Notes: a model not told the origin generated them from the letters alone. A stretch of 41,995 nucleotides of DNA from Pseudomonadota bacterium (GCA_031371245.1 JANMJF010000603.1:1-41995); one strand, 5' to 3'; positions 593-32,931 are shown, counted from the stretch's first letter. Made by a program: numbers and translations.

Positions 593-693
593 GCCCTGCG
601 GTCGATCGCGGTATGCTGGCCCACGGCGAGTTTCGCGCGCCTCAATGCGAGCAGCGGGCTGCGCCGTAACGAAGGCAGGGGAATCATGACAAG

Positions 694-1753: not shown

Positions 1754-1791
1754 CTGACTGCGCCGCTATACTCAAGCGCGGACTGTGAGCG

Positions 1792-2214
1792 GTGAAGAAC
1801 ATGCACATGACAAGTCATCGAAGCGGCGTGCTGTGGGGCCTGGTCATCGCCATGCTCGGCGGCTGTGCGAGCGTCGATGTGCAGTATCCCGATGGTCATC
1901 GCACGCGCATGAGCAAGGTCGAGTTCAAGGCCTATGCCGAGCGTGTGTTCCGTTATCAGAACCGTATTGTCGATCGCTTGATCCGCGCTGACGGTGGCTA
2001 CGGTGACGAACAAGACGAGCCCGATGCGCGCCTGTCGCGCGCCGAAGAAGCGATGGAGGAGGCCTGCCAGCCGTTGATTTCCCTGGTCAGTGCCAAGGCC
2101 GAGCATCGCGCGCTCGGTCTGTCCGACAAACTCGAAATGCCGCGCGCGGCACCCGCCTGCGAGCACGCAGTGGCAGCGGTCGATGCGTTGCTGCCGGCCG
2201 CCGCGATACGCTGA
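1792..2214 (+). CDS. hypothetical lipoprotein
   Basis: The N-terminus ...SGVLWGLVIAMLGGCASVD has a hydrophobic core plus lipobox L-G-G-C. Start is ambiguous (GTG 1792, ATG 1801 or 1807). No family recognised. Confidence 0.6.
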   Translation: MKNMHMTSHRSGVLWGLVIAMLGGCASVDVQYPDGHRTRMSKVEFKAYAERVFRYQNRIVDRLIRADGGYGDEQDEPDARLSRAEEAMEEACQPLISLVSAKAEHRALGLSDKLEMPRAAPACEHAVAAVDALLPAAAIR

Positions 2215-2287
2215 CAGCGCAGGGTACCTGGCCTGCTTCGAGGTGACGGGTATACTCGCGCTTTAGCTCGTTGGTAGCGAGGGAGTC

Positions 2288-2650
2288 ATGAGCAATATCA
2301 CCCTGCCCGCTGATCGTCAGTGGCTCGTCTATGCGCGTTTCGTCGAACAACAGAAAGCGCAATTGCGGCCGTTGATCACCGAAGATTTGATAGAAGAGCA
2401 CCGTCGTCGCCCGCTCGGTCAGCATGGCGATGGCTTGATGCGGCTGCTCAATCTGTTCCGCCGCACACCGGCTTATGCGCTCTATTCGCGCACACCTTGC
2501 CTGGAATTCCAGGTGATTCGTCTGCCGGTGCCGGCAGGCTCGGAACCGCTTCCCATCGACGACATTGTCTACACCGATCAGAACGAGGCCTTGCACGCAG
2601 TGTTTCTGCGCAACCTCGAAGATCTCATGCGCAGCGCGGGAGCGAAGTAA
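2288..2650 (+). CDS. small protein, candidate small (alpha-like) subunit partner of the downstream dimethylformamidase-family protein
   Basis: 120-aa ORF with GAGGGAG directly upstream of ATG 2288. Its TAA stop overlaps the next ATG (TAATG at 2648-2652), indicating translational coupling. The product call rests on size and position only; I cannot verify homology by eye. Confidence 0.55.
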   Translation: MSNITLPADRQWLVYARFVEQQKAQLRPLITEDLIEEHRRRPLGQHGDGLMRLLNLFRRTPAYALYSRTPCLEFQVIRLPVPAGSEPLPIDDIVYTDQNEALHAVFLRNLEDLMRSAGAK

Positions 2651-4917
2651 TGGCCAAACCTTATATCACCGGCTATTGCGACAGCCTGAGTGTACGCCCG
2701 GGCGAGACCTTGCAATTCATGGTCAGCGCTGAAGGTGTGAGCAGCGCGCAGGTGCAACTGGTGCGCGTGCTGCACGGTGACGTGGCGCCCGGCGGCCCGG
2801 GTTTTGTTGAACACGAACTCGCCGCCAGCATGAATGGCACGGTCGCGCTCCAGACGCAGTTCACGCAGATCGGCAGCTTCGTGCAGGTCGCCGACCGCGA
2901 TGGCTCTCTGCTGCCGACGGGGAGCTTCACCGTGCATGCTTTCGTGTGGGCGACCACGCCGGCTAAGGGGCGTCAGGGTCTGGTCGCACAGTTCGATGCC
3001 GCCAGCCGCCGCGGTTACGCACTCGGTATCAACGCAGCGGGCTGCCTGTCGTTCTGGGCCGGTGACGGTCAAGCGGTGCACGAAGTCGCAGGTGAGCGGG
3101 CGCTCGCCCCACGCCTGTGGTATTTCGTCGCAGCGGCCTATGACGCCGAGCGCGGTACAGTCGAGCTCTATCAGGAAGCGGTGGTCAACGCCTATAACAG
3201 TCACTTGAGTCCGCTGTTGGCACTGGACGACGGCACGCGGGTGGCCGGTGTACTGGCGCTGACGCCGCAGGCGGCGGGCAGCGATCTGCTGCTGGGCGGC
3301 TACCACGACGACCAGCCTGGCCATGGCCGCTGCGTAATCGGCTTGTTCAACGGCAAGATCGACCGGCCCGGTCTACAGGCCGGCGCATTGGGACTCGCAG
3401 AGTTGGTACGTCTGCGCGAGGGGCGCACACCGCCGGCCGCCGGCACGATTGCGTATTGGGATACTGCGGCCGGTTATACCGACAACGGCATTGGCGATCG
3501 GGTGGTCGATATTGGTCCGCGGGGCCTGCACGGTCAGGGTTACAACCGTCCGGTGCGGGCCATGACCGGCTATAACTGGCGTGGCAAGGATGATTGTTTC
3601 CGCCTCGCGCCCGAGCAATACGGCGGCATCTATTGCAACGACGACGCCATCATCGACTGCCGCTGGCAGCCGACCTTGCGTTGGACGGTGCCGCTCGATC
3701 TGAAGAGCGGGGTCTATGCCGCACGACTGACGGCGGGTGTCGTCGAAGACCACATCGTGTTCTTCGTGCGTCCGACCACGGCCCAGGCCAAAGTCGCGAT
3801 GCTGATGCCGACAGCGAGCTACCTGGCCTATGCCAACGAGCGTTTTGTGCTCGGCGACCCGGGACCGGTCGAGGCCATCACCGGCCACGGCCTGATTCTG
3901 CACGACGACGATTATTTCCTCGGCCAGCACCCGGAGTTTGGTGCGTCCACCTATGATCACCACGCCGATGGCGCGGGCGTTTGCTACAGCTCTTACCGGC
4001 GGCCGATCATGGGCCTGCGGCCGCGACACCGCATGGCGGCGACCGGTGTGGCCTGGCAGTTCGCGGCCGATCTCTCCATCGTCTGGTGGCTTGCGCAATG
4101 TGGGCACGATTTTGATGTCATTACCGATGAGGATCTCGACCGTGAGGGCGTGGCCCTGCTCGCGCCCTATAAGGTGGTGATCAATGGCACCCACTCCGAG
4201 TACTACTCGGAGCACATGCTGGACGCCACTGACGCCTATCTGGCGCGCGGCGGGCGGGTCATGTACCTGGGCGCCAACGGTTACTACTGGGTGGCGGGCT
4301 TTCGCCCTGACCAACCCTGGTGCATGGAGATACGCAAGCTCAACGCCGGTTCGCGCGCCTGGCAAGCCGCCCCGGGTGAGTACTACCTGGCGTCGACCGG
4401 CGAGAAGAGTGGTATCTGGCGCGACCGTGGCCGCGCGCCGCAGAAGTCGATGGGCGTGGGCTTCACCAGCGAGGGCATGGACGAGTGCAAACCTTACCGG
4501 CGCCTGCCGGATTCCTACGACAGTCGGGTGTCGTGGATCTTTGAGGGCGTGGGTGAGGAGTTCGGCGCCGAGGGTCTGGCCCTGGGAGGCGCGGCCGGTT
4601 TGGAGCTCGATCGCTACGATCTGATGTGGGGCACGCCGCCGGATACCTTCCTGCTGGCCTGCTCCAGCGGACACTCGGACAATTACCCTCACGTTGGCGA
4701 AGAAGTGATGTTCAACCTGCCCGGCATGGGCGGTACCCAGGACTTTCAAGTGCGCGCCGATATGACGCTATTCACGAGTCGCAATGGCGGCGCCGTGTTC
4801 TCCAGCGGGTCGATCGCCTGGGGCCAGGCTTTGCCCTGGAATCATGGTCGTAACGACGTGGCGCGTCTCACACAGAATGTCCTGAACGCCTTCATAAACG
4901 ACGCTGACGTGGTGTAA
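2650..4917 (+). CDS. N,N-dimethylformamidase large (beta) subunit family protein
   Basis: ATG 2650 is preceded by GGGAG. The 755-aa product starts MAKPYITGYCDSLSVRPGETLQFMVSAEG..., the N-terminal pattern I associate with the DMFase beta-subunit family, and the length fits (~760 aa). The ORF-track start at 2320 is an in-frame upstream extension overlapping the 2288-2650 gene and is probably not used. Confidence 0.8.
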   Translation: MAKPYITGYCDSLSVRPGETLQFMVSAEGVSSAQVQLVRVLHGDVAPGGPGFVEHELAASMNGTVALQTQFTQIGSFVQVADRDGSLLPTGSFTVHAFVWATTPAKGRQGLVAQFDAASRRGYALGINAAGCLSFWAGDGQAVHEVAGERALAPRLWYFVAAAYDAERGTVELYQEAVVNAYNSHLSPLLALDDGTRVAGVLALTPQAAGSDLLLGGYHDDQPGHGRCVIGLFNGKIDRPGLQAGALGLAELVRLREGRTPPAAGTIAYWDTAAGYTDNGIGDRVVDIGPRGLHGQGYNRPVRAMTGYNWRGKDDCFRLAPEQYGGIYCNDDAIIDCRWQPTLRWTVPLDLKSGVYAARLTAGVVEDHIVFFVRPTTAQAKVAMLMPTASYLAYANERFVLGDPGPVEAITGHGLILHDDDYFLGQHPEFGASTYDHHADGAGVCYSSYRRPIMGLRPRHRMAATGVAWQFAADLSIVWWLAQCGHDFDVITDEDLDREGVALLAPYKVVINGTHSEYYSEHMLDATDAYLARGGRVMYLGANGYYWVAGFRPDQPWCMEIRKLNAGSRAWQAAPGEYYLASTGEKSGIWRDRGRAPQKSMGVGFTSEGMDECKPYRRLPDSYDSRVSWIFEGVGEEFGAEGLALGGAAGLELDRYDLMWGTPPDTFLLACSSGHSDNYPHVGEEVMFNLPGMGGTQDFQVRADMTLFTSRNGGAVFSSGSIAWGQALPWNHGRNDVARLTQNVLNAFINDADVV

Positions 4918-4927
4918 ATGCCTAGTA

Positions 4928-4965
4928 GTTGTGGCGCGGCTGTGGTCGTGCCACAACGCATTTTC
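4928..4965 (+). terminator. putative intrinsic terminator after the DMFase-like gene
   Basis: GTTGTGGC (4928-4935) pairs with GCCACAAC (4950-4957), extendable by 3 more pairs. It is followed by GCATTTTCC. The U-tract is short. Confidence 0.4.
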
Positions 4966-5208
4966 CACGCTGGCCGGCCCTGCGTGCGCGTGTTAGTGTT
5001 CAAGCCGCAGGGGAGTCGAAAGATATACAAGAAGAAGTGCCCAAACTCACCTTATTGAGCTTGCCTTTTTTCAACTGAAACTCGCACACCGCATCAGTCG
5101 GCTTCGTGCCGCATGCCTGCCCGCGCGGATATCGCGGGCGTTTCCGTACTGCCATCGGCCTCGTACCCTTGAGGTCGCCGCGTGGTGCGCCGTCAATGGA
5201 GAGCAAGC

Positions 5209-5493
5209 ATGAGTGCAGTAATAAAGATTGACGAGGCCAAGGTGGACAGCGTCCCGGGCACGCCACCAGCCATCTACCACGTTACCAAGCTCGAAAAGTG
5301 CAAGTTGGATCAGGTCGGTCCGAGCGGTTATCGCTATGTGATCGAGGGTGGCTATGCGCCCATCACGGGCTTTCACATCGGCAGTAAAGAGGCGGTCTTA
5401 ACCCATGCCTCGGTGCTGGCCAAGGAAATGAATGCGCGGCGCGGCGTGAAGGGCACCCGTCACATCGTGATCGGTAAGCCGAAACAGTCCTGA
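5209..5493 (+). CDS. hypothetical small protein (94 aa)
   Basis: ATG 5209 has GGAG about 9 nt upstream. The product MSAVIKIDEAKVDSVPGTPPAIYHVTKLEK... matches no family I recognise. It sits just after a visibly lower-GC spacer (4920-5200). Confidence 0.45.
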   Translation: MSAVIKIDEAKVDSVPGTPPAIYHVTKLEKCKLDQVGPSGYRYVIEGGYAPITGFHIGSKEAVLTHASVLAKEMNARRGVKGTRHIVIGKPKQS

Positions 5494-5514
5494 ACTGGCA
5501 CCCGACGCGCGTCG

Positions 5515-6459
5515 TCAGCCGCGCGTCGTTGCCGCCGGCGCGCTCTTGCCGGCCTGAATCACACTCGTTGCAATACTGATCATCGATGAGATGTCGGCCA
5601 GATTGGCCGGCACGATCAAGGTACCCTTGGCATCCCGCGCGAGCTGACCGAACTCTTTGATGTACTGCTCGGCGATGCGCAATTGCATGGCCTGTGCACC
5701 GCCGTCGCTGCCGAGCGCTTGGGCGACACTGCGTAAGCCTTCGGCGGTCGCCGACGCAATCGACATGATCGCCGCCGCCTGGCCTTCCGCTTCGTTAATC
5801 CTTTGCTGCTTGTTGGCTTCCGAGGCCTTGATCACGCGCTGCTTCTCGCCATCGGCCTGATTGATGGCGGCATCGCGTTCGCCTTCCGAAGCCAAGATCA
5901 CCGCACGCTTCTCGCGCTCGGCGCGCATTTGTTTCTCCATCGCGGTCAAAACATCGTGCGGTGGGTTGATATTGCGGATCTCATAGCGCAACACCTTCAC
6001 GCCCCACGGCGCCGAGGCCTTGTCGAGTTCCGCCACCACATTGCCGTTGATGGTGGAGCGTTCTTCGAAGGTGCGGTCGAGATCGATCTTGCCGATCTCG
6101 CTGCGCAAGGTGGTCTGTGCGAGCTGGATGAGGGCGAATTTATAATTGGTGATGCCGTAAGAAGCCTTGTTCGCTTCCAGCACCTGCATATAGAGAATGC
6201 CGTCAACACCGACCTGCACGTTGTCCTTGGTGATACAAACCTGCTCGGGGATGTCGAGCGCCTCTTCTTTGAGGTTGAGCCGGTAGGCGATGCGCTCGAC
6301 GAAGGGCACCAGAATATGGAAGCCGGCGTGCAGGGTGCGGCTGTACCGGCCCAGGTTTTCGACCACGAAGGCGCTCTGCTGCGGCACGATGGTCGCGGTC
6401 TTGGCGATGACAATGATGACCAGGATGGCGATGGTCAGGACGACGTAGGTGGTTGCCAT
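5515..6459 (-). CDS. SPFH/band-7 (stomatin/paraslipin-like) membrane protein
   Basis: Starts MATTYVVLTIAILVIIVIAKTATIVPQQSAFVVENLGRY...: an N-terminal TM helix, then an SPFH core, then a coiled Ala/Glu-rich C-terminus. AGGAG lies 7 nt upstream of ATG 6459. The track ORF extends to 6618, but that extension overlaps the NfeD gene. Confidence 0.9.
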   Translation of the reverse strand: MATTYVVLTIAILVIIVIAKTATIVPQQSAFVVENLGRYSRTLHAGFHILVPFVERIAYRLNLKEEALDIPEQVCITKDNVQVGVDGILYMQVLEANKASYGITNYKFALIQLAQTTLRSEIGKIDLDRTFEERSTINGNVVAELDKASAPWGVKVLRYEIRNINPPHDVLTAMEKQMRAEREKRAVILASEGERDAAINQADGEKQRVIKASEANKQQRINEAEGQAAAIMSIASATAEGLRSVAQALGSDGGAQAMQLRIAEQYIKEFGQLARDAKGTLIVPANLADISSMISIATSVIQAGKSAPAATTRG

Positions 6460-6481
6460 AGTGAGCTCCTGCGAGTGGCTA

Positions 6482-6937
6482 TCAATGCCGATTACGGATG
6501 TGGAGAGTGAGGCCGGCGGTTTCCCATACTTCAGCTTCGCTACCGGCTTCGATGGGCGCCTCGTCGGTGTTGCGCGCGCTCCAGCTCGTGCCACGGTATT
6601 CGACGCGGCAAGTCGCACCCGCTGCGAGACGTTCCGGCACTACGATAAGGTCGCCCATGATTAAACGTTCTTCGACCTGGCCGACGTTGGCTTTGAACTT
6701 GTTGTAGAGCCGTGCGCGGAACAGCGCCATGCAGCTTAAAGCCAGCGCGGCGAAGATGAGCCATTGCGCCCATTCCGGCAACGGTACGGCCGCCATGCCG
6801 AGCAGGCCGACGACGATCGCGGCCGCACCGACGAATACCAGATAGAACTGCGCGCTGACGCCGAGCATTTCGGCGCCGAGTAACAGCGTGCCCGTCACCA
6901 TCCAACCCCACCACGGCATGCGTCGTTCCTCGATCAT
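6482..6937 (-). CDS. NfeD-family membrane protein
   Basis: Has hydrophobic N-terminal helices (WWGWMVTGTLLLGAEMLGV..., AAAIVVGLLGMAAV..., WLIFAALALSCMALF) and a C-terminal OB-like soluble domain (...GATCRVEYRGTSWSARN...). It lies 22 nt upstream of the SPFH gene, the classic nfeD-SPFH operon. Start is 6937 or 6919. Confidence 0.8.
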   Translation of the reverse strand: MIEERRMPWWGWMVTGTLLLGAEMLGVSAQFYLVFVGAAAIVVGLLGMAAVPLPEWAQWLIFAALALSCMALFRARLYNKFKANVGQVEERLIMGDLIVVPERLAAGATCRVEYRGTSWSARNTDEAPIEAGSEAEVWETAGLTLHIRNRH

Positions 6938-7083
6938 GGCGGGCCCAGCGCTCGCGCTGAGCATCGTGACGGCAGCGCACGGCGCTTGCAAGGGCGGCGC
7001 ATGCTACGTGGGGCGATTGTCAAACGCGGGGCTAAGTCGTTAGTGTGTTGCGCAGCGGCGAATACGCCAACAGCGAGGTCGAT

Positions 7084-8214
7084 ATGATTACCAGCTTCGA
7101 CGATTACCTTATCCACCAGACACCGCAGGCCCTGGTCCATGTCGGTACCACCGATTCCAATGCCTACGATCGCTATTTCCTTGAGGGTTTCGTCGCGGAT
7201 GGCTCGCTGATATTCGGTGGCGCCTTCGGTCTATACCCTAATCGCGACGTGGTGGACGCCGCCTTCAGCGTCAGCGTCGAGGGCGCGCAGTACTCGCTGT
7301 TCGCGAGTGGCCGCGCACCGCGCGAACGCGGTGAGTCGCGTGTCGGCCCGATCCAGGTGGAGATCCTGTCGCCCATGCGCAGCCTGCGTCTGTCGGTGCA
7401 TGACAAGGCACGTGGCTTCTTCGCCGATTTGCGCTTCGACGCTGTCACCGGTGCCATTGATGAAGGGCGCCAGACCCTGACCGACGGTCCGCGGACCTCA
7501 GTCGATTTGACGCGCTACTCGCAACTCGGCACTTGGTCTGGGGTCATCGAAGTGAAAGGCCGGCGTATCGAACTGGCAGGCAAGCAGGTACTCGGCGTGC
7601 GCGATCATTCCTGGGGCGTGCGGCCACTAGGCGGTGGTGGCAGCACCCGTTGGGCACCACAGATCCACTGGTATTGGGGGCCGATTTTCTTCGGTGACGA
7701 ATGCATGCACTGGCATGTGAATGACGACCCCGAGGGTGAGCTGCCCGACCGCTTCGCGGCCCTGGTGCCGAGCGTCGATGGCGCCGGTGATGGTCCGCTC
7801 TACATGCGTGACACTGGCGGCGAATATCTCATCCCAGTGTCCTTCACGCCGCGCTACCGTAACGGCACGCGGCGCGTCGAACATCTGCAAGTGGTCATGC
7901 ACGACAAGCGTGGGCCGCGCATGACGCTGGAATTCATTCCTGATCAGCGCCTGCTGTTTTCATTAATGGGCCTGGGCTACACCAATAAAGCTTGGGAACA
8001 CGGTGCCTGGCGCGGTGAGTTGATGGTCGACGAGAACGCCTGGCCGAGTCATGAACAGTCACCGCTGTTCCCACGCAATTGGCACATGCATCACGTCTGC
8101 AAGGTCAAGCGCGACGACGGCAAAGAAGGTTCGGCGATCCTCGAACAATGCCTGTTCGGGCCGCATAAGCCGAGCGGCTTACTGGGGGTGACCGACGGGT
8201 GGAAGGTAGCGTAG
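7084..8214 (+). CDS. conserved hypothetical protein (possibly AttH/CrtC-like beta-barrel fold)
   Basis: ATG 7084 (MITSFDDYLIHQTP...) has GAGG upstream. The ORF is long with GC-rich third positions. The only motif I can point to is GVRDHSWGVRP, reminiscent of the D-H-x-W-G motif of the CrtC/AttH family, which is weak evidence. Confidence 0.7.
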   Translation: MITSFDDYLIHQTPQALVHVGTTDSNAYDRYFLEGFVADGSLIFGGAFGLYPNRDVVDAAFSVSVEGAQYSLFASGRAPRERGESRVGPIQVEILSPMRSLRLSVHDKARGFFADLRFDAVTGAIDEGRQTLTDGPRTSVDLTRYSQLGTWSGVIEVKGRRIELAGKQVLGVRDHSWGVRPLGGGGSTRWAPQIHWYWGPIFFGDECMHWHVNDDPEGELPDRFAALVPSVDGAGDGPLYMRDTGGEYLIPVSFTPRYRNGTRRVEHLQVVMHDKRGPRMTLEFIPDQRLLFSLMGLGYTNKAWEHGAWRGELMVDENAWPSHEQSPLFPRNWHMHHVCKVKRDDGKEGSAILEQCLFGPHKPSGLLGVTDGWKVA

Positions 8215-8271
8215 CCGCACAATTTGAGTTTCTCTGCGCCGGGAGCCGGACAGCATGGCACTGGCAGAAAT

Positions 8272-8289
8272 GTCCGAATAAATTCGGAC
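8272..8289. terminator. palindromic hairpin between convergent genes
   Basis: GTCCGAAT-AA-ATTCGGAC is a perfect palindrome flanked by an A7 run on the plus strand. It sits between the 7084-8214 (+) and 8336-9229 (-) genes. U-tract geometry is poor on both strands. Confidence 0.3.
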
Positions 8290-8335
8290 CCACAAAAAAA
8301 CACACGGCACCCAATTGCAGGCCTCGCTATCGCTC

Positions 8336-9229
8336 TCAGGTGATGGAGGCCTGATAGATGCTTTCGATGGCGGCATCCAGCGCGCTATCAAAGGCCGCAT
8401 CGCTCTGCTGTTTGCTCAGACCTTCGGTCAAGGCCCGCGAGAAGCTCGCGACCATGCCGTGGTTGCGTGCCAGGCGCGTGTTGGCGTCGGCACGGGAATA
8501 GCCGCCGGACAGGGCGACCACGCGCACCACGTTCGGCTGCTTGATGCAGTCCTGATAAAAATCGTCGACTTCGGGCAGGGTGAGCTTGAGCATCACCAGC
8601 TCGTTCGGCGCGAGCGCGGTCAGCGCATCCATGACGGCACTCTTCAAGAGTTTTTCGGCGTCAGCCTTGTGCGGGCAGTGGATATCGATTTCAGGCTCGA
8701 TGATCGGCACTAGGCCCGCTGCGCATATCTGTTTGCCCACCACGAACTGTTGGGCGACCACCGCCTTGATGCCGGCGGCATTGGCCTGCTTCACCACCGA
8801 GCGCATCTTGGTGCCAAAAATACCTTTGGACTTGGCCTTCTTGAGCAAGGCATCGAGGGTCGGATTGGGTTTCATCAACTGCACGCCGTCGGCTTCGTCG
8901 GCGAGGCCTTTATCGACCTTGAGGATCGGCACGACGTTCTTCACGTTCCACAGATATTCGGCGGCCGGTTGGCCGACGAATTCACGATCCATGGTGCCTT
9001 CAAACAGGATCGCGGCGAGGATGCGTGTGCCGCTGAAGGCGGAACTCATGACGATGCGTGCGCGCATTTCGTGAACCAGCGCGAACATGCCCTCGTCGTC
9101 AGACCAGGCGCCCTCATGGATGCCGTAGAGCTGCAGCGCTTTGGGGGTCGAACCACCACTCTGGTCGAGCGCAGCGATGAAGCCTGCTGCCGTGCGCATT
9201 TTTTTGAGTTGCAGTTCGTAGTTTTTCAC
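8336..9229 (-). CDS. fda: class I fructose-bisphosphate aldolase (Staphylococcus Fda type)
   Basis: ...GFIAALDQSGGSTPKAL...ILFEGTMDRE...VPILKVDKGL...GVQLMKP...IFGTKMRSV...LVPIIEPE...VMLKLTLPE...VVRVVALSGGYSR...ASFSRAL... is colinear with the ~296-aa class I Fda as I remember it. The likely start is GTG 9229 (MKNYELQLKKMRTAAGF) with GAGGAAG upstream. ATG 9199 is the alternative. Confidence 0.9.
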   Translation of the reverse strand: MKNYELQLKKMRTAAGFIAALDQSGGSTPKALQLYGIHEGAWSDDEGMFALVHEMRARIVMSSAFSGTRILAAILFEGTMDREFVGQPAAEYLWNVKNVVPILKVDKGLADEADGVQLMKPNPTLDALLKKAKSKGIFGTKMRSVVKQANAAGIKAVVAQQFVVGKQICAAGLVPIIEPEIDIHCPHKADAEKLLKSAVMDALTALAPNELVMLKLTLPEVDDFYQDCIKQPNVVRVVALSGGYSRADANTRLARNHGMVASFSRALTEGLSKQQSDAAFDSALDAAIESIYQASIT

Positions 9230-9601
9230 GGTCTTCCTCGGCTGTAGATGGGGGTAGCCAAGGTTTTGGCTAGTGGTCTCTATTCTAACCGCCGAGCGTC
9301 GCGGCGCGAGCGTTCTACGCGCGCTGTCGCTACGCCCGACCAATCGTCATAGCTCGTCACCGTCCCATCGACAACCAGCCTCAAAGCCACGCTCCAGACG
9401 CGGCGACGTCGGTCGCTATTGAAGAAGCAGTGGCGGCCGCTGCGGTCCACCATCGATTGCCCACGCCAGCCCGGCCACCCGCAGATCAGGCACCGCGCCG
9501 CCGCTGGGCGCGCTAGCGGGTTCGCACCCGCACAATTTGCTGATAGTGACGTGCGCCATTTAAGTTTCGCCAAACTCAGCTTCTCTCACCGCCGCCCAGC
9601 C

Positions 9602-11383
9602 ATGTCGCGCTGGGTTCGATTGCTGATCACGGCGGTAGTGCTGCATCTCGGTAGCGTCGCGTTGGCGGCCGGCGGGCCGCCGACCTTGCCCGGCTTGAAC
9701 GTCGTCAGTAAGACTCTTTGGACCCCGACCGCAGTGCGCAAGGTGCTACGTACTTTTGCCTTCGGCGGGCAGGCCAGCGATGCGCAGATCGCGATCTGGG
9801 CGACCATGAAGCCGCAGGCCGCGATCGTTGAAATGCTGACTTTCGACGAGCACAACCTGCTGCTCTCGCCGCCCGACGCCCGACTTGCCAAGGAGGGCTT
9901 GCACAAGCGGCGCCAGACGCTGCGCGCGCTCGGCGATTTCTGGGCCTCGGATAACGCCGCCAACCCAGTCTTGCCCGACGAGCGTGAGCACTACGCGCGC
10001 AGCAGCTGGCACGGTGCAATGCTGGTCTGGTCGATGGCCGCTCGTGTACGCGGTGGCAATCCCTTCCGCCATCGCATTGGTTATTGGGAAACCAATTTTC
10101 ATCTCGCCGTAAACCATACGCGCGGCGTGTCGAACTATCAGTTGGTGCGTTACTACGACGATGTCATGGCCGCGCTCGCACGGGGTGACGGTTACGACCA
10201 AGTGACTGCGACCGCCGCGCTGTCCGCTGCCATCGGTCAGCAGTATCGGCATCGCTTCAACCGCTATTATGCGGGCGAGTGCTACTGCAACGAAGACTTC
10301 GCGCGCGAATTTCACCAGCTCGGCTTCGGCGTGTTGGGCAGTCGCGACAGGGACTATCACGAGCGCGTCTCGATCAAGAATACCGCCGCCGCGCTGACCG
10401 GCATGCGCTTCACCAGTAGCGAGGCGCCGGATGAGTGGCAAGCGGAAAATGTGGTGTTCGAAACCGACGGTCATGTGCCACAGCCGGTGTCTATCCTGCA
10501 CCACACGATTTATGGGGCGACCACCCGCGAGAAGATCCGTATGCTCGCGCGCTTCGATATTGAGCAGCAGGAAAGCCTCGACAATCTGCCGTTGATGATA
10601 GTGCAGAGCATTGCCGATGACAGCATCTCGACCGTCGAGGCTACCGCGCTGCGCACGGCCTGGCGCAGCATGAAGAAAAAGAATCTGCTGCGCTATCTGC
10701 GCGCCTATGCAATCTCGACCCTGTTCCACTCTACCCAGCGCGTTAAACAGCTGAGCAGTCTCGAGCGGGTGATGGTGACGGCCAATCGATTTGCCGACAC
10801 CAACCTCGAGCACTACAACGACGTGACCGAAACATGGCGTTTGTACTGGCAAGATGAAGTGGTGCCATTCGAGCCCTGGCACGACGTGTTCGGTCATCAG
10901 AACGGGCCGGAAACGGCTGGCAGCGCTGAGCTGTTCCGCAAGAATTACAAACGCGCCACTGACGCCGTTTTCAGCTACAGCCGGCAGAACTTAAATGGCG
11001 AGGCGCGGGCCAAAGACTGGCGCGCGATCATGCCGCGTGGCAAAGGCTATTTGATCGGCACCACCGCCGAATGGTTATGGCAACGCTTCGTGTCCGATGG
11101 CCTGAAGAATTTCGGACCACTGGAGCGCGCCCATCTCTATGCCTTGCTCGGTTACGGACGTGACCTCGGCGCGGTATTGCACCCGCAGTTCCCGGATACC
11201 GCGGTGACGCTCGGCGAACTCCGCCGCGGTGCCGGCAAGGCCTGGTTAGCCAAAGTCGGCGCAGCGCGGTTAGCGCTCGAAAGCAAAGACGCTGGCATCC
11301 GCGAGCGCAGCAATGATCGCATCGGCGCAGCCATCGATTTCATTATTGCCACACCGTTCATGCTGGCTGAAGAAGGGCGTTGA
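9602..11383 (+). CDS. secreted hypothetical protein (possibly DUF1800-like)
   Basis: ATG 9602 gives MSRWVRLLITAVVLHLGSVALAAGGPP..., a signal peptide. The ORF is 593 aa. The segment GYWETNFHLAVNH resembles the FW-x-NHF core of DUF1800, but no DUF1501 partner follows, so the family call is tentative. Confidence 0.75.
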   Translation: MSRWVRLLITAVVLHLGSVALAAGGPPTLPGLNVVSKTLWTPTAVRKVLRTFAFGGQASDAQIAIWATMKPQAAIVEMLTFDEHNLLLSPPDARLAKEGLHKRRQTLRALGDFWASDNAANPVLPDEREHYARSSWHGAMLVWSMAARVRGGNPFRHRIGYWETNFHLAVNHTRGVSNYQLVRYYDDVMAALARGDGYDQVTATAALSAAIGQQYRHRFNRYYAGECYCNEDFAREFHQLGFGVLGSRDRDYHERVSIKNTAAALTGMRFTSSEAPDEWQAENVVFETDGHVPQPVSILHHTIYGATTREKIRMLARFDIEQQESLDNLPLMIVQSIADDSISTVEATALRTAWRSMKKKNLLRYLRAYAISTLFHSTQRVKQLSSLERVMVTANRFADTNLEHYNDVTETWRLYWQDEVVPFEPWHDVFGHQNGPETAGSAELFRKNYKRATDAVFSYSRQNLNGEARAKDWRAIMPRGKGYLIGTTAEWLWQRFVSDGLKNFGPLERAHLYALLGYGRDLGAVLHPQFPDTAVTLGELRRGAGKAWLAKVGAARLALESKDAGIRERSNDRIGAAIDFIIATPFMLAEEGR

Positions 11384-26774: not shown

Positions 26775-27416
26775 ATGTCTCCGCGACGAAACAGAGTCGA
26801 TCCCTGGGGGGATTTCCATGCGGTGGCGGCCAGAGGCATGTTCACCGGCAATCGCGGCTGCGTGGTCGATGATCGTGAACAAGTCGTGCGTCATCACGCC
26901 AGCATATTGTGGATTACCTGCCTCACTGCGTTTCGTGATTGGCGATGGCCGCTGGCGCGCGCGCGGCGCTGGACGCCTTTGTTCTTCCTTGACGACGCGG
27001 TCGCTTTAGCCGCCGGGCATCGACCTTGCGCAACTTGTCGGCGCGCCGACTATCTTGCGTATCGGGATGCAGTGACTCGCGCCACGTCAGCGCCACGGCC
27101 GCTCCGCGCGTTCGAATTGAACGAGCGCTTGAACAAGGAACGACTGCACTTAGGGCGCGGGCTGGTGCGGGCGGGCGATCGCATGGTGTGGTCCACACCC
27201 TGTGCGGACCTGCCCGACGGTACGGTAGTCGTCAATCGCGAAGGGGTGTGCGAGCTCGTGCGTGGTAGTTCGTTGCTGCGCTTCGCCTTTGATGGCTGGA
27301 CTACACGAAGGCCAAGGCCGGTGCATGGCGTGGCGTCTGTATTGACACCACCGACCTCGGTGATGGCATTGGCCAACGGCTACCAGCCGACACTGCATCC
27401 GAGCGCACTCGCGTAA
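26775..27416 (+). CDS. conserved hypothetical protein with Ada-like Cys motif
   Basis: AGGAGC lies about 10 nt upstream of ATG. The product reads MSPRRNRVDPWGDFHAVAARGMFTGNRGCVV...WITCLTAF...LFFLDDAVALAAGHRPCATCRR... I do not know the function (see findings). Confidence 0.7.
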   Translation: MSPRRNRVDPWGDFHAVAARGMFTGNRGCVVDDREQVVRHHASILWITCLTAFRDWRWPLARARRWTPLFFLDDAVALAAGHRPCATCRRADYLAYRDAVTRATSAPRPLRAFELNERLNKERLHLGRGLVRAGDRMVWSTPCADLPDGTVVVNREGVCELVRGSSLLRFAFDGWTTRRPRPVHGVASVLTPPTSVMALANGYQPTLHPSALA

Positions 27417-27444
27417 CTTCACCGTGCTGCCGCGGTCACTGGTC

Positions 27445-27565
27445 CTGTTCAGACACGGCTATGTCGGATCGTTATCCGATCGCACTGCCCCTGCTACAGT
27501 ACCGCCCGATACGACGGGCCGCTCGTTGCGAAGAGTAACAACTGTCGCGGTGTATCAGGAGAGAA
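27445..27565 (+). repeat. imperfect direct repeat, copy A (left boundary of the low-GC cassette)
   Basis: Colinear identical blocks shared with copy B: TATCCGATC 27473-27481, TGCCCCTGCTACAGT 27486-27500, GGCCGCTCG 27517-27525, AGTAACAACTGT 27534-27545, TCAGGAGA 27555-27562. Internal hairpin potential between 27491-27500 and 27541-27550. Confidence 0.7.
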
Positions 27566-27877
27566 ACGAGGTGGTGGCGCTTCATGGCAGGCCGCGCCCG
27601 CCGCCATCGCGTAGTAAGCACGGACACGTCCGTCCTGACCAGTCACGACAAAGCTAATGATGCTCTGACATAACGCGGTACGGCAGCAAGTTATGGGCAG
27701 GCAGTGCGCGCGCTGGTTTATCTGGCGCAAGGTTACGCGCTGACTTCCAGCCGTAAAGAGTCCGATGGCGCATTGCGCGATCACCGACTGCCACCTGAAT
27801 ACTCTAGATGATCGATCCTTTGGAACGCCTATTTGGGTATTGCGAAGTGGACGAATGCCGTTTGCAAAGGGTGGGCA

Positions 27878-30715
27878 ATGATATTGCGTTATGACATTCA
27901 GGGATTCAGGGCGCTCGCAGTGTTTTTTGTGCTTGTCTACCACGTGTGGCCTGCTTGGTTGCCAGGTGGTTTCATAGGTGTTGATGTTTTTTTTGTTATT
28001 TCCGGCTATCTCATTACGGCGCTTCTGAGGCGTGAACTAGCGGCGACGGGCAGCATTTCTTTCTCGAATTTCTACGCGCGCCGTGCGCGGCGTTTGCTGC
28101 CTGCGTCTCTGTTGGTGCTGGGTGTGGTGTTACTGGCGGTTTTCCTGCTTCAGCCCACCCTGTTGTGGAGAAGTGTCGCTGGTGATGTGATTGCCGCCGT
28201 GCTGTACGGCGAAAACTGGTGGCTGCACTTCAAGGCGTTGGATTATCTCGCTGGAGGTGACCTTAGCAGCCCTGTACAGCATTACTGGTCGCTTTCGATC
28301 GAAGAGCAGTTCTATTTCCTGTGGCCGGTGTTGATGCTGGCCGTCTATTCCACGGCTCGACATTGCTGGCGAGGCGATCCTCTCGCAATGTTACGTTGGA
28401 CGCTGCTGCTTATCGTTCTCCTGTCGCTGGGTTTCTCGATCTGGACCGCGCTATACGGTGAATCTGGCGCAGGCTATTTCTCGACGTGGACTCGAGCCTG
28501 GCAACTTGGGGCTGGCAGTTTGCTTGCTCTTGCCGAAGGTGGCCAGCAGCGTGCGGGAAAATGGATGTTGCACGTGGGCCTCGTCGGTATGGCGCTCTCG
28601 GCCAGTGCGCTGACGGCAGCGGTAGCATACCCGGGCTGGTGGGCCTTGGGTCCCACCGTTTCAACCGTGCTCTGTCTTGCGGCTGGCCGACATTACAGCG
28701 ATTCGGTGTTCACCCGCTGGATGGAAGCTCGCCCCGTGCAATTGGTGGGCGATGTGTCTTATTCGCTCTATCTCTGGCACTGGCCGATCGTGGTGTTTGG
28801 ACGGCAGCTCTGTCCAGACGGGTACGGAGCGCTTTCCGGTTCTATTGTGGTATCGCTGTCGTTGGCGATCGCAGTGCTCAGCAAGCGCTGGGTGGAGGAT
28901 CTGTTCCGTCACAATCGCGTGCATGCCCAGCGGCCCTGGATGGTGCTCAATTGGGTCGCATTGGGCTCGCTGTTCGTTGCCGGGTTGGCTGGGCTGCTGA
29001 CGTGGTCGGCGCAGGACAAGTCCGATGGCGGGCCGGCAAATTTCCCCGGCGCGGTTGCGATTTCCTTAGGCTACCTTGAAGACGGCAAAGGTGCGTTTAC
29101 ACCATCGTTAATAAACGTAGAAGGGGACGTGGCCGCCGCCTATAACCAGGGCTGCATACAGCAGGTAGAAAGCGCCGAGGTACTGCGTTGCACTTACGGA
29201 ACGGATGATGCCGCAGTCAAGATTGCGCTGGTTGGCGATTCCCACGCGGTGCACTGGTTGCCGGCGTTCGAGGAGTTGGTGCGGAAATACGATCTACAAG
29301 TGCTTGGAATCACAAAGACCAGTTGTGCATTTTCCGACGTGGCCGTTTATCACGCCGGTCTCAAACGAGAGTACGCGGCTTGCGTCGCGTGGAGCAAAGC
29401 GGTGGTCGCTGAACTTTCACGAAGTAACATAAATTATGTGGTAGTCAGCCAGTCTGCCCAGCAAATTGTTCCATCTCATCTTGGCGATCCGCAGGCAGCA
29501 GTGGCACCGCTTGCAGTCGGCATGCTCCATCTTTGGCGGCAGTTGGAAGCGGCGGGTAAAACCGTCATTCCGATTCGTTCAACGCCAACGCAACCCACGG
29601 TTGTACCCCGCTGCGCTGCCAGCCATCAATGGCCATTCTCAGAGTGTACCGGAACGCAGGGCGAGGTTCTTTTTGACAGTGCGATCTCGTATGCCGCTCG
29701 CCAGGCTGGCAAGGTACCGCTGGATCTGACGAAGTATTTCTGTGTGTCGGGTCAGTGCCCGGCCGTCATTGGCGGCGTGTTTGTCTATCGAGATTCCCAC
29801 CACATCACAGCAACCTACATGCGAACGCTTGCTCCGATGCTGTTGCGGCACTTGTCGATCAAGGGGATCAAGCCGAGGGCCCATGTAATTGACAGCGTGC
29901 CGCTACCAGACGTTGGCGATGTGGCGCTACTGCGCCCGTCACTACGCAAGGCAAAGTATGACCGCGGCGAGGGCTTCGCTGACAAATGTATTCGCATTTC
30001 AGGAGCGACTGTTGCTGAGTGTGACTATGGGCCGGCAACCGCACTGAGGCACGTTGTAGTGGTAGGAGATAGCATGGCTGCAAATCTGTTGCCGGCCTTG
30101 GTCGCAGTCGGCGCTAGCAAAGGCTGGAAGGTAACGGCGATGGTGAAGGACAGCTGCCTGTTCTCCCAAACGGCGGTCTACAACCGGCTTGCTGGGGGCG
30201 CTTTTGAAGATTGCCGGGCGTGGTCATTGGCAGTTCGTCAGCGCTTGAGCGAGATCCACCCCGATGCGGTGCTGGTTGCCCAGTCACCGAATTATCGCGT
30301 CGATGTCAATACATCGTTGGGCGCCAGCGAGGAGGTGCTGGCTGTGGGTGTGCTCGCCATGTGGAACGCGCTTGAGACGCTGAAGATTCCGGTCGTGGTG
30401 ATGGATTATCTGCCGGTGATGAAAGGAGATGTTCCAGCTTGCCTGGCCGACGAATCCTCGCGTAAAGCCGGTTGTTTCGGGTATACGTCCGGGAGCCTGC
30501 GTAAGGGGGTGTTGACGCTTGCAGCCGAACAAAGTGGCAGGAAGTTGGTGAGTCTTACTGACCAGTTCTGTAATCGGCAGTATTGCCCGGCGGTCAAAGA
30601 TGGGATCGTTGTGTATCGAGATTCCATGCAGCCAACGGCAACTTTTATGCGCAGTCTGGCCGCCGTCCTCGGCCTGCGACTGCAAGATGCGGTTGTCAGT
30701 CTTGCTGAACATTGA
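27878..30715 (+). CDS. acyltransferase-3 (OafA/YrhL-type) membrane O-acyltransferase with two tandem C-terminal SGNH domains
   Basis: ATG 27878 gives MILRYDIQGFRALAVFFVLVYHVWPAWLPGGFIGVDVFFVISGYLIT (AT3 signature) plus multiple TM helices. SGNH-1: KIALVGDSHAVHW ... VYRDSHHIT. SGNH-2: VVVVGDSMAANLL ... VYRDSMQPT. 945 aa. GC is visibly lower than the flanks. Confidence 0.9.
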   Translation: MILRYDIQGFRALAVFFVLVYHVWPAWLPGGFIGVDVFFVISGYLITALLRRELAATGSISFSNFYARRARRLLPASLLVLGVVLLAVFLLQPTLLWRSVAGDVIAAVLYGENWWLHFKALDYLAGGDLSSPVQHYWSLSIEEQFYFLWPVLMLAVYSTARHCWRGDPLAMLRWTLLLIVLLSLGFSIWTALYGESGAGYFSTWTRAWQLGAGSLLALAEGGQQRAGKWMLHVGLVGMALSASALTAAVAYPGWWALGPTVSTVLCLAAGRHYSDSVFTRWMEARPVQLVGDVSYSLYLWHWPIVVFGRQLCPDGYGALSGSIVVSLSLAIAVLSKRWVEDLFRHNRVHAQRPWMVLNWVALGSLFVAGLAGLLTWSAQDKSDGGPANFPGAVAISLGYLEDGKGAFTPSLINVEGDVAAAYNQGCIQQVESAEVLRCTYGTDDAAVKIALVGDSHAVHWLPAFEELVRKYDLQVLGITKTSCAFSDVAVYHAGLKREYAACVAWSKAVVAELSRSNINYVVVSQSAQQIVPSHLGDPQAAVAPLAVGMLHLWRQLEAAGKTVIPIRSTPTQPTVVPRCAASHQWPFSECTGTQGEVLFDSAISYAARQAGKVPLDLTKYFCVSGQCPAVIGGVFVYRDSHHITATYMRTLAPMLLRHLSIKGIKPRAHVIDSVPLPDVGDVALLRPSLRKAKYDRGEGFADKCIRISGATVAECDYGPATALRHVVVVGDSMAANLLPALVAVGASKGWKVTAMVKDSCLFSQTAVYNRLAGGAFEDCRAWSLAVRQRLSEIHPDAVLVAQSPNYRVDVNTSLGASEEVLAVGVLAMWNALETLKIPVVVMDYLPVMKGDVPACLADESSRKAGCFGYTSGSLRKGVLTLAAEQSGRKLVSLTDQFCNRQYCPAVKDGIVVYRDSMQPTATFMRSLAAVLGLRLQDAVVSLAEH

Positions 30716-30901
30716 TACCGAGCAGCTTTTCCTTGCCGCTGAATCGATACTTCAAACGCCACCATTTTCCGGCCGGTGTCACCCCCAGGAACAACCCGCC
30801 ACTGCCGCATAGCTGCAAAGGTTTTGCGTCTACATTTGAGTGGAGTTAGTAAGTTTATAAAGAAATTGTAATTTAACTAATTTCAGTATGATTTTCTGAC
30901 C

Positions 30902-32092
30902 ATGGATCCGATACACAATCCCTTCGCTCCAGGAGCCGGCATGCCGCCTCCCGAACTAGCAGGCCGCGACGAACTCCGCGAACTTGTGCGTGTCGCCATC
31001 GAAAGAGTAAGGCTGGGACTCCCACCGAAAAGCATCTTAATGGTCGGGCTCCGAGGCGTGGGCAAAACAGTGTTGCTCGACCGCATGCGTGATGATGCCG
31101 AGGCTAGCGGCATCCAGACCGTGCGCATCGAAGCACCAGAAAGCCGCTCCCTGCCTGCGATCCTGGCGCCGCAGTTGCGGCAAGCCCTGTTGCGTTTGTC
31201 TCGCAATGAGCAGGCAAAAGAGCTGGCCAAGCGCGCGCTCCGCGGACTGGCCGGTTTCGCGCGCGCGCTCAAGATTAAATATCAAGACATTGAGGTGGGT
31301 ATCGACTTCGAACCTGAACCAGGGCTCGCCGACAACGGCGACCTGGAGCACGACCTGCAGGCATTGCTGGAAGTAGTCGGCGCTGCGGCGCAGAAAGCGG
31401 GTAGCGCACTGGTCCTGTTCATTGATGAACTTCAGTACGTCGAGGAGGAGCAACTGGCAGCCCTCATCACTGCTTTGCATCGAACGGCACAACGGCGTAT
31501 GCCGGTCGTTTTAGTGGGGGCGGGTCTGCCACAACTGAGAGGACAGATGGGGCGTGCGAAGTCCTACGCCGAGCGCCTATTCGATTTTCCAGAGATTGCG
31601 GCGCTGCCGGCGTCGGCAGCGCGGATTGCCATAGCAAAGCCAGCGCGCGAGCAAGGTGTGGAAGTGCTCGAAGAAGCCCTCGAGAAAATCTTGGAGCAGA
31701 CGCACGGATACCCATATTTCCTGCAGGAATGGGGCAAGCACGCATGGGACGTCGCAGTAGAATCGCCGATTACTCGTAACGATGTGGAAGTGGCCTCGAC
31801 GGCTGCGGTGGCAGCTCTCGATGAGAGCTTTTTTCGCGTACGCTTTGACCGTCTTACACCCTCGGAGAAGAAGTATCTTCGGGCGATGGCGGAACTCGGC
31901 GCAGGTCCCCATCGATCGGGTGATATCGCGGAAAAATTAGAGCGCAAAGTGACGTCGCTCGGCCCGACGCGCAATCAGCTCATTTCGAAGGGCATGATCT
32001 GGAGCCCAAATCACGGCGATACCGCTTTCACGGTGCCGCTGTTCGACGAATTCATGCGCCGAATCATGCCTGGCAACGACTGGAAGTTGTGA
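30902..32092 (+). CDS. AAA+/ORC-Cdc6-like ATP-binding protein with C-terminal winged-helix domain
   Basis: NPFAPGAGMPPPELAGRDEL...; Walker A GLRGVGKTVLL; Walker B LVLFIDELQ; ...THGYPYFLQEWG...; C-terminal wHTH-like LTPSEKKYLRAMAELGAGPHRSGDIAEKL. Preceded by a strongly AT-rich spacer (30830-30900). Confidence 0.85.
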   Translation: MDPIHNPFAPGAGMPPPELAGRDELRELVRVAIERVRLGLPPKSILMVGLRGVGKTVLLDRMRDDAEASGIQTVRIEAPESRSLPAILAPQLRQALLRLSRNEQAKELAKRALRGLAGFARALKIKYQDIEVGIDFEPEPGLADNGDLEHDLQALLEVVGAAAQKAGSALVLFIDELQYVEEEQLAALITALHRTAQRRMPVVLVGAGLPQLRGQMGRAKSYAERLFDFPEIAALPASAARIAIAKPAREQGVEVLEEALEKILEQTHGYPYFLQEWGKHAWDVAVESPITRNDVEVASTAAVAALDESFFRVRFDRLTPSEKKYLRAMAELGAGPHRSGDIAEKLERKVTSLGPTRNQLISKGMIWSPNHGDTAFTVPLFDEFMRRIMPGNDWKL

Positions 32093-32204
32093 GCCCCGTT
32101 AGTCCGAGCCTCTAATTCAGCCCCAAATGAAATGCGTGGTCGCGTTTCTGCAGCTGACTGATTGTGGCCCACCGAGCGTGGTATTCGCTTGACGCTGCCT
32201 CGCT

Positions 32205-32335
32205 GCGGTTCGACAGAGCAGCATCGCTATCCGATCTTAATGCCCCTGCTACAGTTCACCTCGTGCAGAGGCCGCTCGATGGAAAAAGTAACAACTGTAG
32301 CAACTGTAGCAGTCCCATTAGATTCAGGAGAAGAC
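32205..32335 (+). repeat. imperfect direct repeat, copy B (right boundary of the low-GC cassette)
   Basis: The same five blocks in the same order: 32228-32236, 32241-32255, 32270-32278, 32287-32298, 32324-32331. Contains a tandem AACTGTAGC x2. CTGCTACAGTT (32246-32256) is the exact reverse complement of AACTGTAGCAG (32302-32312). Confidence 0.7.
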
Positions 32336-32478
32336 GTGACCCTTGCGTAGACCAGGCCCTGCACTGCCACTGACAAGGTCGAGAGGGCAGAGCAGGCGAC
32401 CAGCGCCATCGGCGCCTGCAAAAAGGGTCCGCGCCTGTCTGACCGCGTCGCCCGCACGGCGTCCAGGCCTTGTGTTCG

Positions 32479-32931
32479 ATGGAGATCGTTGAAGTCGGAC
32501 TCGCCGGCTACATGCCCAGCACCGAATGTCAGCACCGCGACCGTGCGCCAGTGCAGATTGCACCGAGAATTTCGATCCAGCTGCTGCAGGTGGACTTCGA
32601 CCACAACATCCGCATCACGCGTGCCCGACTCGACCCGGGCGTAAGGCTGCGCACCCACATCCACACCGGCCATGTGTTTGCATGGACGCTATCCGGCACC
32701 TGGAAGTACATCGAATATGAGCTGAGCAGCTACGCCAATTCTTATCTGTACGAACCGGCCGGTTCGTCGCACACGCTGCTCGTCCCTGAAAACAGCAAGG
32801 TGCCTGCGGATGTCATCTTCATCGTCCATGGCTCCAATGTCGAGCTCGGGCCCGAGGGCGAATTCGAGGGCATCACCGACGCCGCGCAGATCGCTCGCGC
32901 CTACATGGATCAGACTCATCGAATGCGCTAA
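32479..32931 (+). CDS. 2,4'-dihydroxyacetophenone dioxygenase-like cupin family protein
   Basis: ...ISIQLLQVDFDHNIRITRARLDPGVRLRTHIHTGHVFAWTLSGTWKYIEY...YLYEPAGSSHTL... shows the cupin H-x-H...G-x-W-x-Y-x-E pattern of the DAD family. Start is ATG 32479 or TTG 32470. Confidence 0.7.
   Translation: MEIVEVGLAGYMPSTECQHRDRAPVQIAPRISIQLLQVDFDHNIRITRARLDPGVRLRTHIHTGHVFAWTLSGTWKYIEYELSSYANSYLYEPAGSSHTLLVPENSKVPADVIFIVHGSNVELGPEGEFEGITDAAQIARAYMDQTHRMR

Follow-up and report, generated by a model that had tools for sequence, protein, structure and literature searches.

The contig JANMJF010000603.1 of a Pseudomonadota bacterium (GCA_031371245.1), analyzed here over positions 1-41995 (41,995 nt, the whole stretch, hereafter the window), carries between 27.47 and 32.54 kb two imperfect direct repeats, copy A and copy B, that bracket an acyltransferase gene and an ATPase gene, and the remains of a primase-helicase gene lie directly beside copy B. 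Our analysis indicates that this locus is most likely an ordinary degraded genomic island and not a new RNA or a new system. We see an even chance that the repeats are attachment-site (att)-like junction repeats of an integrase-less cassette that was joined to a decayed integrative element. The wider proposal, that the window from 27.47 to 32.54 kb is a patchwork of horizontally acquired DNA from integrative elements that have since decayed, is one that we would place midway between acceptance and rejection. The features on which these proposals depend are the following.

27468 to 27562, plus strand: repeat copy A, with its core at 27468-27548 and its last block, TCAGGAGA, at 27555-27562.
32223 to 32331, plus strand: repeat copy B, with its core at 32223-32301 and its last block at 32324-32331.
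27878 to 30715, plus strand: AT3 plus SGNH O-acyltransferase of 945 amino acids (aa), from matches to Pfam Acyl_transf_3 and SGNH.
30716 to 30901, plus strand: AT-rich spacer, the putative upstream (promoter) region of the ATPase gene, from comparison with plasmid homologues.
30902 to 32092, plus strand: solitary AAA_16 ATPase of 396 aa, like the origin recognition complex (ORC)/Cdc6 proteins, from matches to Pfam AAA_16 and AAA_22.
32341 to 32541, minus strand: pseudogene relic of a Toprim_3-DUF3987 primase-helicase, from phmmer, tblastn, PHROG and Pfam.

The direct repeats are real and well above chance. An earlier reading of this DNA, made without database searches (the sequence-only reading), had proposed that five identical blocks recur in the same order, and all five were found in place, with the copies in direct orientation and offsets from copy A to copy B of 4755, 4755, 4753, 4753 and 4769 nt. 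It had also named in advance a pairwise alignment against shuffled controls as a test, and the Smith-Waterman score between the two intergenic regions (69) exceeds that of every one of 300 dinucleotide-preserving shuffles (21.5 ± 2.3, maximum 34). Identity over the 81-column core is 76.5%, and the ungapped segments comprise 33 nt at 88% identity (spacing 4755) and 32 nt at 84% identity (spacing 4753). Past the core, copy B is 16 nt longer than copy A, partly through a tandem AACTGTAGC. The identical runs shared by the copies measure 15, 12, 9 and 9 nt, and the run of 15 nt is unremarkable at 76% identity (P = 0.22). By way of control, seven unrelated exact direct repeats of 15-17 nt were counted in the window, and a lone 15-mer is therefore background whereas the colinear blocks are not, just as the sequence-only reading had argued. 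The exact 15-mer CACTGGTCCTGTTCA (27437-27451, left of copy A, and 31407-31421, inside the ATPase gene) has no extension and occurs at background frequency, and was set aside as chance; the inverted repeat at 27700-27720 and 32348-32368 was also discarded, being 76% complementary, which is usual for chance pairs in the window. To the left of the copies, alignment against shuffles gave similarity at chance level, and the weaker similarity suspected over 100-200 bp to their right dissolved on alignment (score 18 versus 19.4 ± 2.3 for the shuffles).

With regard to the internal organization of the copies, mismatches between A and B are clustered with moderate significance (P ~0.005), and the clustering is due to a single 16-nt patch. 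The 11-bp perfect inverted repeat and the tandem AACTGTAGC that had been noticed in copy B are both present. The tandem occupies 32293-32310 and the arms of the inverted repeat extend over 32238-32256 and 32302-32320, making copy B an 83-nt imperfect palindrome whose 19-nt arms are 84% complementary, whereas copy A is a poor palindrome. Copy B has two tandem units of AACTGTAGC and one inverted unit, and copy A has one unit per orientation.

Judged by homology, a decayed integrative or phage-satellite-type element is demonstrably present beside copy B. The sequence-only reading had pointed to a minus-strand peptide there, GESDFNDLHRTQGLDAVRA, as weakly Toprim-like, and this peptide turned out to belong to a genuine primase-helicase relic. 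It matches PHROG 2249 'DNA primase' (E = 0.0024), and just downstream of it, colinear with and adjacent to the PHROG match, there is a marginal match to Pfam DUF3987 (E = 0.022-0.034). A phmmer search with 95 codons (32514-32230) against 1.84 billion representative proteins returned E-values of 4.6e-13 and 5.1e-13, and tblastn with one relative, P0311, placed the relic at 32541-32341 (E = 1e-18). Full-length relatives are 671-831 aa long, combine Toprim_3 with DUF3987 and are annotated as 'putative DNA primase/helicase' (JGI). About 200 nt, or ~60 codons, of the primase gene are left: the end of the Toprim domain is followed by a deletion of ~45 codons with a 1-nt frameshift, then by the first ~26 residues of DUF3987, after which the homology ends. 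It ends at 32341-32350, corresponding to ~residue 405 of 831 and only 10-18 nt from the end of copy B at 32331, and copy B therefore marks a breakpoint of rearrangement within a gene of a mobile element. The end of the relic that points away from copy B abuts the cupin homology at ~32530-32541. The orientation of the relic implies that the lost integrase end lay on the right and the distal end on the side of copy B. Taken as whole proteins, the minus-strand open reading frames (ORFs) that overlap the copies gave no credible family match. Even a very weak peptide motif, spotted by eye, can thus be the trace of a genuine pseudogene.

Truncation or frameshift is likewise seen in the relatives closest to the relic (P0311, P0312, P0319 and P0320), and the decayed element is therefore old and common to the lineage; identity to the relic is 81-84% for P0311 and P0312, the pair that was aligned. 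An alignment-based search found relatives of the primase encoded on at least 578 IMG/VR contigs, and an alignment was required for this, as a single-sequence scan of IMG/VR gave no match. The only full-length relative matched there is carried by IMGVR_UViG_2808606525_000004 (positions 1-10935, ~11 kb; L025), which encodes, in order, an integrase (Arm-DNA-bind_3, Phage_int_M and Phage_integrase), AlpA, the primase-helicase, a capsid protein, a prohead protease, a portal protein, TerS and TerL, with no tail genes among the 10 ORFs scanned. Its layout resembles that of phage-inducible chromosomal islands (PICIs) of the capsid-forming type (cfPICIs), and among intact elements L025 is the best model for the relic.

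The segment between the repeats looks acquired, in that it combines a plasmid-type ATPase gene and an acetyltransferase gene matching a moron family with the lowest GC content and the lowest GC content at third codon positions (GC3) in the window. The domain scan and the ORFs agree with the earlier observation that only the AT3-SGNH gene and the AAA ATPase gene lie between the copies. The lower GC noticed at the outset was borne out as well: the segment from A to B has 57.3% GC, within the lowest 1% of 4.7-kb windows, and the GC3 values of the two cargo genes (0.625 and 0.646) are the lowest in the window, where the other genes average 0.730 ± 0.052. The two left-neighbor genes are also lowish in GC3 (0.665-0.668).

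The acyltransferase matches PHROG 6705 'O-antigen acetylase', category moron, at E = 3e-139. Its nearest homologues are 59, 57 and 52% identical, followed by proteins of Lysobacter and Luteimonas at 44-47%; one homologue lies within a glycan biosynthesis cluster that lacks the ATPase, and neither of the two relative loci examined has the repeat. The protein carries an extra C-terminal extension of ~270 aa. A subfamily of 940-970 aa (P0192-P0212), found in Lysobacter, Luteimonas, Marilutibacter and metagenomes, has these ~270 C-terminal residues beyond the usual ~680-aa AT3-SGNH proteins, and the extension includes a second SGNH stretch and a weak match to DUF459.

The ATPase, whose start was set by comparison with plasmid homologues and which also has a weak ORC4 match, is by its relationships a plasmid-type accessory gene. 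In tblastn comparisons it shares 74% identity with a gene on a plasmid of Pseudomonas (P. oryzihabitans), 71% with one of Azoarcus pAZKH and 62-64% with those of Sphingobium plasmids, and a total of 115 PLSDB plasmid records match it, including those of Rhodococcus, Arthrobacter and Clavibacter. At the DNA level, similarity to the plasmid genes reaches only to about 32073, less than 20 nt short of the stop codon. On the plasmids the gene is solitary, in varied and unrelated contexts, and the plasmid copies have no flanking repeats; no PLSDB plasmid has either the element or the acetyltransferase-ATPase gene pair. The spacer at 30716-30940 has a GC content of only 47%, and comparable AT-rich regions precede the plasmid homologues, so the very AT-rich spacer is explained by the ATPase gene bringing its own AT-rich upstream region, as on plasmids. 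Solitary ATPases of ~396 aa form a family (L022 5959-7152, L023 5959-7158 and L024 5956-7131) that occurs on plasmids of Alpha-, Beta- and Gammaproteobacteria and Actinobacteria, and for which no specific Pfam, NCBIfam or PADLOC family and no solved structure was matched.

Because the primase relic adjoins copy B and the cargo looks acquired, we favor the view of the repeats as scars of decayed elements over that of an RNA or a protein-binding element. The sequence-only reading had offered both and took the block-wise conservation as favoring a functional element. Its decayed-element alternative has stood up; the functional lean has not, given that the clustering of mismatches stems from one patch, the predicted folds are weak and the 3' half is variable. 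In the course of events that we propose, an integrase-alpA-primase element (P4-like, PICI or cfPICI-like) would once have lain to the right, its integrase end facing the cupin gene and its distal end facing copy B, and the acetyltransferase and ATPase genes would have formed an integrase-less cassette between two diverged ~100-nt recombination sites, as at the tandem junction of a cis-mobilizable element (CIME). Site-specific recombination may first have placed one element beside the other, giving rise to the direct repeats. A later deletion, starting from the edge of copy B, may have taken the helicase portion of the primase gene along with all that lay distal to it, and through a further rearrangement the integrase end may have been lost and the cupin gene trimmed. 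The repeats would now be decaying scars, and the cassette, fixed in the sampled population, would be unable to move by itself. The CIME-like criteria seen at the locus are direct repeats, an acquired segment between them that is free of integration and transfer genes, and the position of copy B at a junction of foreign DNA.

Differences among strains bear on the state of the repeats. In copy A, strain contigs L004 and L006 depart from the window at two positions of the 3' arm, 27543 and 27546, and in strain contig L019 four of the five single-nucleotide polymorphisms (SNPs) found over 1657 nt fall within 40 nt of one another in copy B (32284-32323). The 3' half of both copies is therefore a substitution hot spot between strains and the 5' half is strain-invariant. 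The substitutions argue against constraint in the 3' half and fit decaying scars. As a source of the L019 SNPs, gene conversion from copy A was rejected since the variant bases differ from those of copy A; the pile-up in the 3' halves could reflect a locally raised mutation rate or conversion by a further, unseen copy.

Several observations weigh against the repeats being att-like scars. Typical attL/attR pairs have a short identical core in common, and the repeats here, of ~85-105 nt, show only 76-88% identity and a 16-nt indel, with longest identical runs of 15 and 12 nt. A site-specific insertion, if clean, would have left the primase gene uncut, and an extra deletion must be assumed. No recombinase was found in the 42-kb window: as the sequence-only reading had it, there is no integrase or transposase domain in any scanned window ORF, and the ORFs and DNA scanned likewise yielded no excisionase and no tRNA or tmRNA gene (ARAGORN). 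No empty site was found, as all five strain-level contigs carry the cassette, nor was an excised form. Relatives of the 213-aa gene to the left of copy A, of the cupin gene and of the acetyltransferase gene showed no synteny and no element; for relatives at 74-83% amino-acid identity the intergenic DNA is unalignable, and the empty-site test accordingly carries little weight. Of the look-ups by exact protein, that of the 213-aa protein returned four strain contigs, and those of the cupin, PhaC and the ATPase, made with first-guess gene starts, returned no record.

The element is present in only two copies, as counted in the window and in ~1.3 Mb of other loci, which is in keeping with att-like scars. 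There is no third copy in the remaining 37 kb of the window, and nhmmer detected none in the ~1.3 Mb, relatives included. None was found in ~70 kb from the relatives L010-L013, and the 80 loci (1.08 Mb) that encode related primases hold no similar sequence. In 185,579 species genomes, the pattern TGCCCCTGCTACAGTN{8,24}GGCCGC gave three chance matches (Syntrophorhabdus, Litorilinea and Cytobacillus), none of which extended beyond the pattern, and the pattern CCCTGCTACAGTN{8,24}GGCCGCTCG gave only two chance matches in JGI metagenome contigs; two patterns had no match in IMG/VR viral contigs. Such scans demand exact blocks, and diverged copies would escape them. Distant-mode BLAST with both copies found no match among PLSDB plasmids, and with the whole 4.9 kb it recovered only a 60-nt acetylase motif from a phage collection. 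The repeat sequence is thus unmatched in the collections searched; the copy count refers to a 42-kb contig with ~25 intergenic regions and not to the whole source genome.

It is unlikely, in our judgment, that the copies are instead cis-acting protein-binding sites, either iteron-type replication sites or operator/promoter modules, with AACTGTAGC as the binding unit. The tandem, inverted and single occurrences of AACTGTAGC described above would suit such sites, although the 3' half that bears this motif is the strain-variable part. The element lies beside a primase-helicase relic, and in phage P4 the ori and crr sites lie ~4.5 kb apart and are bound by the P4 primase-helicase; against this analogy, copy B sits where the helicase domain of the primase belongs and thus is not in its native position, and the related-primase loci lack the sequence. 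The ORC/Cdc6-like ATPase gene with its AT-rich upstream region, located between the copies, would be in line with such sites, but the plasmid copies of this gene are without flanking repeats. Both copies lie upstream of plus-strand genes and a weak -35/-10-like TTATCC-N17-TACAGT was recognized by eye in the strain-invariant 5' half; a promoter scan was nevertheless without result. The clustering of A/B mismatches in one patch would also be in keeping with binding sites. A sigma-54-like reading of GGCCGC-N-TTGC was dropped because, by eye, it is valid in copy A only.

Somewhat less probable is that the element is a low-copy dispersed palindromic repeat, peculiar to this lineage, of the repetitive extragenic palindrome (REP), miniature inverted-repeat transposable element (MITE) or Correia type, with the arrangement arising by homologous or illegitimate recombination between copies and without any link to an integrase. 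The palindrome in copy B would fit such a repeat and the poor one in copy A does not. The four clustered L019 SNPs, being unlike copy A, resemble a conversion patch from an unseen copy, and the Logan contig L007 terminates inside copy A; yet only two copies occur in the 42 kb with its ~25 intergenic regions, none in the sequence from L010-L013, and the exact-block scans gave chance matches only, as the plasmid and phage BLAST searches gave no copy. That the copies exactly bracket the most atypical segment and touch a pseudogene breakpoint would have to be a coincidence.

We hold it to be very unlikely that the copies encode a structured RNA, which could be a small RNA (sRNA) or a 5' leader in which a 5' UCCGAUC pairs with an AGGAG-containing 3' end and that regulates the acetyltransferase and cupin-phaEC genes. 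RNAalifold predicts a shared extended stem-loop of 25 pairs, with 97% of cells paired and three pairs changed on both sides between A and B, and a Shine-Dalgarno-like AGGAGA is sequestered in both folds. This structure was derived from the same sequences, however, and the four distinct sequences represent only two independent lineages; the consensus energy is just -12 kcal/mol over 123 columns, and no conserved start codon follows the Shine-Dalgarno-like block. The conserved hairpin potential put forward by the sequence-only reading proved to be weak, with fold z-scores of -1.0 and -1.9 on the plus strand (-1.5 and -0.8 on the minus strand), and the inner hairpin of the variable middle does not exceed chance (frequencies 0.10-0.48). 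Among the strain differences, the SNP at 32323 disrupts a predicted pair, and those at 27543 and 27546 only shift a mismatch. Rfam 15 gave no match at the gathering score, and even at E ≤ 10 there was only microRNA, snoRNA and sRNA noise, none of it over the repeats.

An equally slim prospect is that the ~100-nt element is an undescribed recombination or replication site, with a hairpin and AACTGTAGC in direct and inverted copies, that moves or captures integrase-less cassettes in trans and is used by Toprim-DUF3987 satellite-like elements of an uncultured lineage. Were this so, it would be a functional parallel, unrelated in sequence, to the attC sites of integrons, including clusters of attC sites lacking integron-integrases (CALINs), or to the P4 ori/crr pair.

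The least probable of the explanations, terminal redundancy, in which a ~4.75-kb circular plasmid-like molecule would have entered by a single homologous crossover (Campbell type), or a piece of a concatemer longer than one unit would have been captured, with divergence of the copies thereafter, fits the plasmid-type ATPase gene with its own AT-rich upstream region and the direct repeats that bound exactly one unit, but it predicts copies that were identical at insertion, where we see 12-24% divergence and a 16-nt indel as against ~1% between strains, and no plasmid in PLSDB has the element or the gene pair. A coding role of the repeat was rejected, as the plus- and minus-strand ORFs across the copies had no family match and the 2-nt change in offset breaks a common frame.

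Two genes flank the locus.

26775 to 27416, plus strand: conserved hypothetical protein of 213 aa (ORF).
32530 to 32931, plus strand: fragment of a cupin of the 2,4'-dihydroxyacetophenone-dioxygenase family, from Pfam Cupin_7; its tblastn limits are 32530 (or 32503) to 32907.

Copy A begins 52 nt past the stop codon of the 213-aa gene, and the left junction is not independently defined. The 213-aa protein has no Pfam or NCBIfam match; it has more than 5,000 homologues, the best 120 of them at 68-83% identity, and the neighbors of its gene differ in every relative examined (L010-L013). These neighbors are often envelope-modifying: LpxR and a GDSL lipase in L012, a GT4 glycosyltransferase in L010 and the AT3 acetylase in the window.

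To the right of copy B the gene order is Cupin_7, PhaE-like and PhaC-like, and all of the real genes of the region are on the plus strand. The cupin gene, on the plus and not the minus strand, is truncated at both ends. Compared with homologues of 162-164 aa, it is without ~15 N-terminal and ~21 C-terminal codons, and the conserved C-terminal GLPRPDVIGxPxDW is gone just before the PhaE-like gene. The called 150-aa cupin gene (32479-32931, plus strand) has its start within the antisense of the primase relic. For annotation, this means that the 150-aa call is a fragment, that the ORF called at 32227-32673 on the minus strand mixes relic with noise, and that the repeats should not be marked as an RNA gene. 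Elsewhere in the window, at 21545-24184 (plus strand), there is an 879-aa ORF with an N-terminal HupE/UreJ membrane domain (residues 30-195) and the Plug domain of a TonB-dependent receptor (241-348), which represents an unusual fusion or, alternatively, an in-frame read-through of two genes.

Comparison with known systems places the locus among familiar ones. Like integron attC sites and CALINs, it has imperfect ~100-nt repeats with hairpin potential around a promoter-less-looking cassette and no integrase nearby. Unlike them, its conserved arms are not mutually complementary, and the 4.7-kb cassette has two genes, each with its own upstream region; a regular-expression search for attC R'' (RYYYAAC) and R' (GTTRRRY) motifs flanking a palindrome of 50-150 nt had no match on either strand of the two repeat regions or of the whole window. 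A search for dif-like 28-bp XerC/XerD sites, as used by integrative mobile elements exploiting Xer recombination (IMEX), had 15-16 mismatches of 28 at best against a background mean of 14.7, with a single gammaproteobacterial consensus. In the template and variable repeats of diversity-generating retroelements, which have a reverse transcriptase nearby, differences are confined to adenines of one copy; here the mismatches involve all bases, indels are present and no reverse-transcriptase domain was found in the window ORFs.

The order of the integrase-alpA-primase module has been described for P4-like, PICI and cfPICI satellites (PMC10085698), in which accessory genes are usual at the distal end. 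The locus is like these satellites in that its relic belongs to the Toprim_3-DUF3987 family, a relative of which is found in the integrase, alpA, primase, capsid, portal and terminase element L025, and unlike them in that the window keeps ~60 primase codons, with no integrase, AlpA or packaging genes found in the ORF scans. It is not classable as a satellite, only as a relic.

The acyltransferase shares its domains (AT3-SGNH), its PHROG 6705 match and its status as an isolated accessory gene in acquired DNA with the O-antigen acetylase morons of prophages (OafA/Oac type; PMC7448272, PMC9558356). It differs from these in the extra C-terminal domain of ~270 aa and in the location of its closest relatives, which belong to chromosomal glycan clusters in Lysobacteraceae-like bacteria.

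CIMEs, and the accretion of integrative elements in tandem at att sites, are an established pattern (PMC5704250). In common with a CIME in tandem (PMC5704250), the locus has an acquired segment without integration or transfer genes, direct repeats around it and the remains of another element adjoining. It departs from that pattern in that its repeats are ~100 nt long and diverged rather than a short identical core, that there is no tRNA-type target gene and that the neighboring element breaks off at the repeat; for this locus, an att function, excision and a cognate integrase are all putative. Decayed islands with remnant direct repeats, moron acetylases and plasmid-type accessory genes are all known already, and nothing points to a new mechanism. 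The locus raises no new question and its practical value lies in annotation; if our interpretation is correct, it would be a worked example of how decayed elements and satellites leave glycan-modifying and plasmid-type accessory genes behind.

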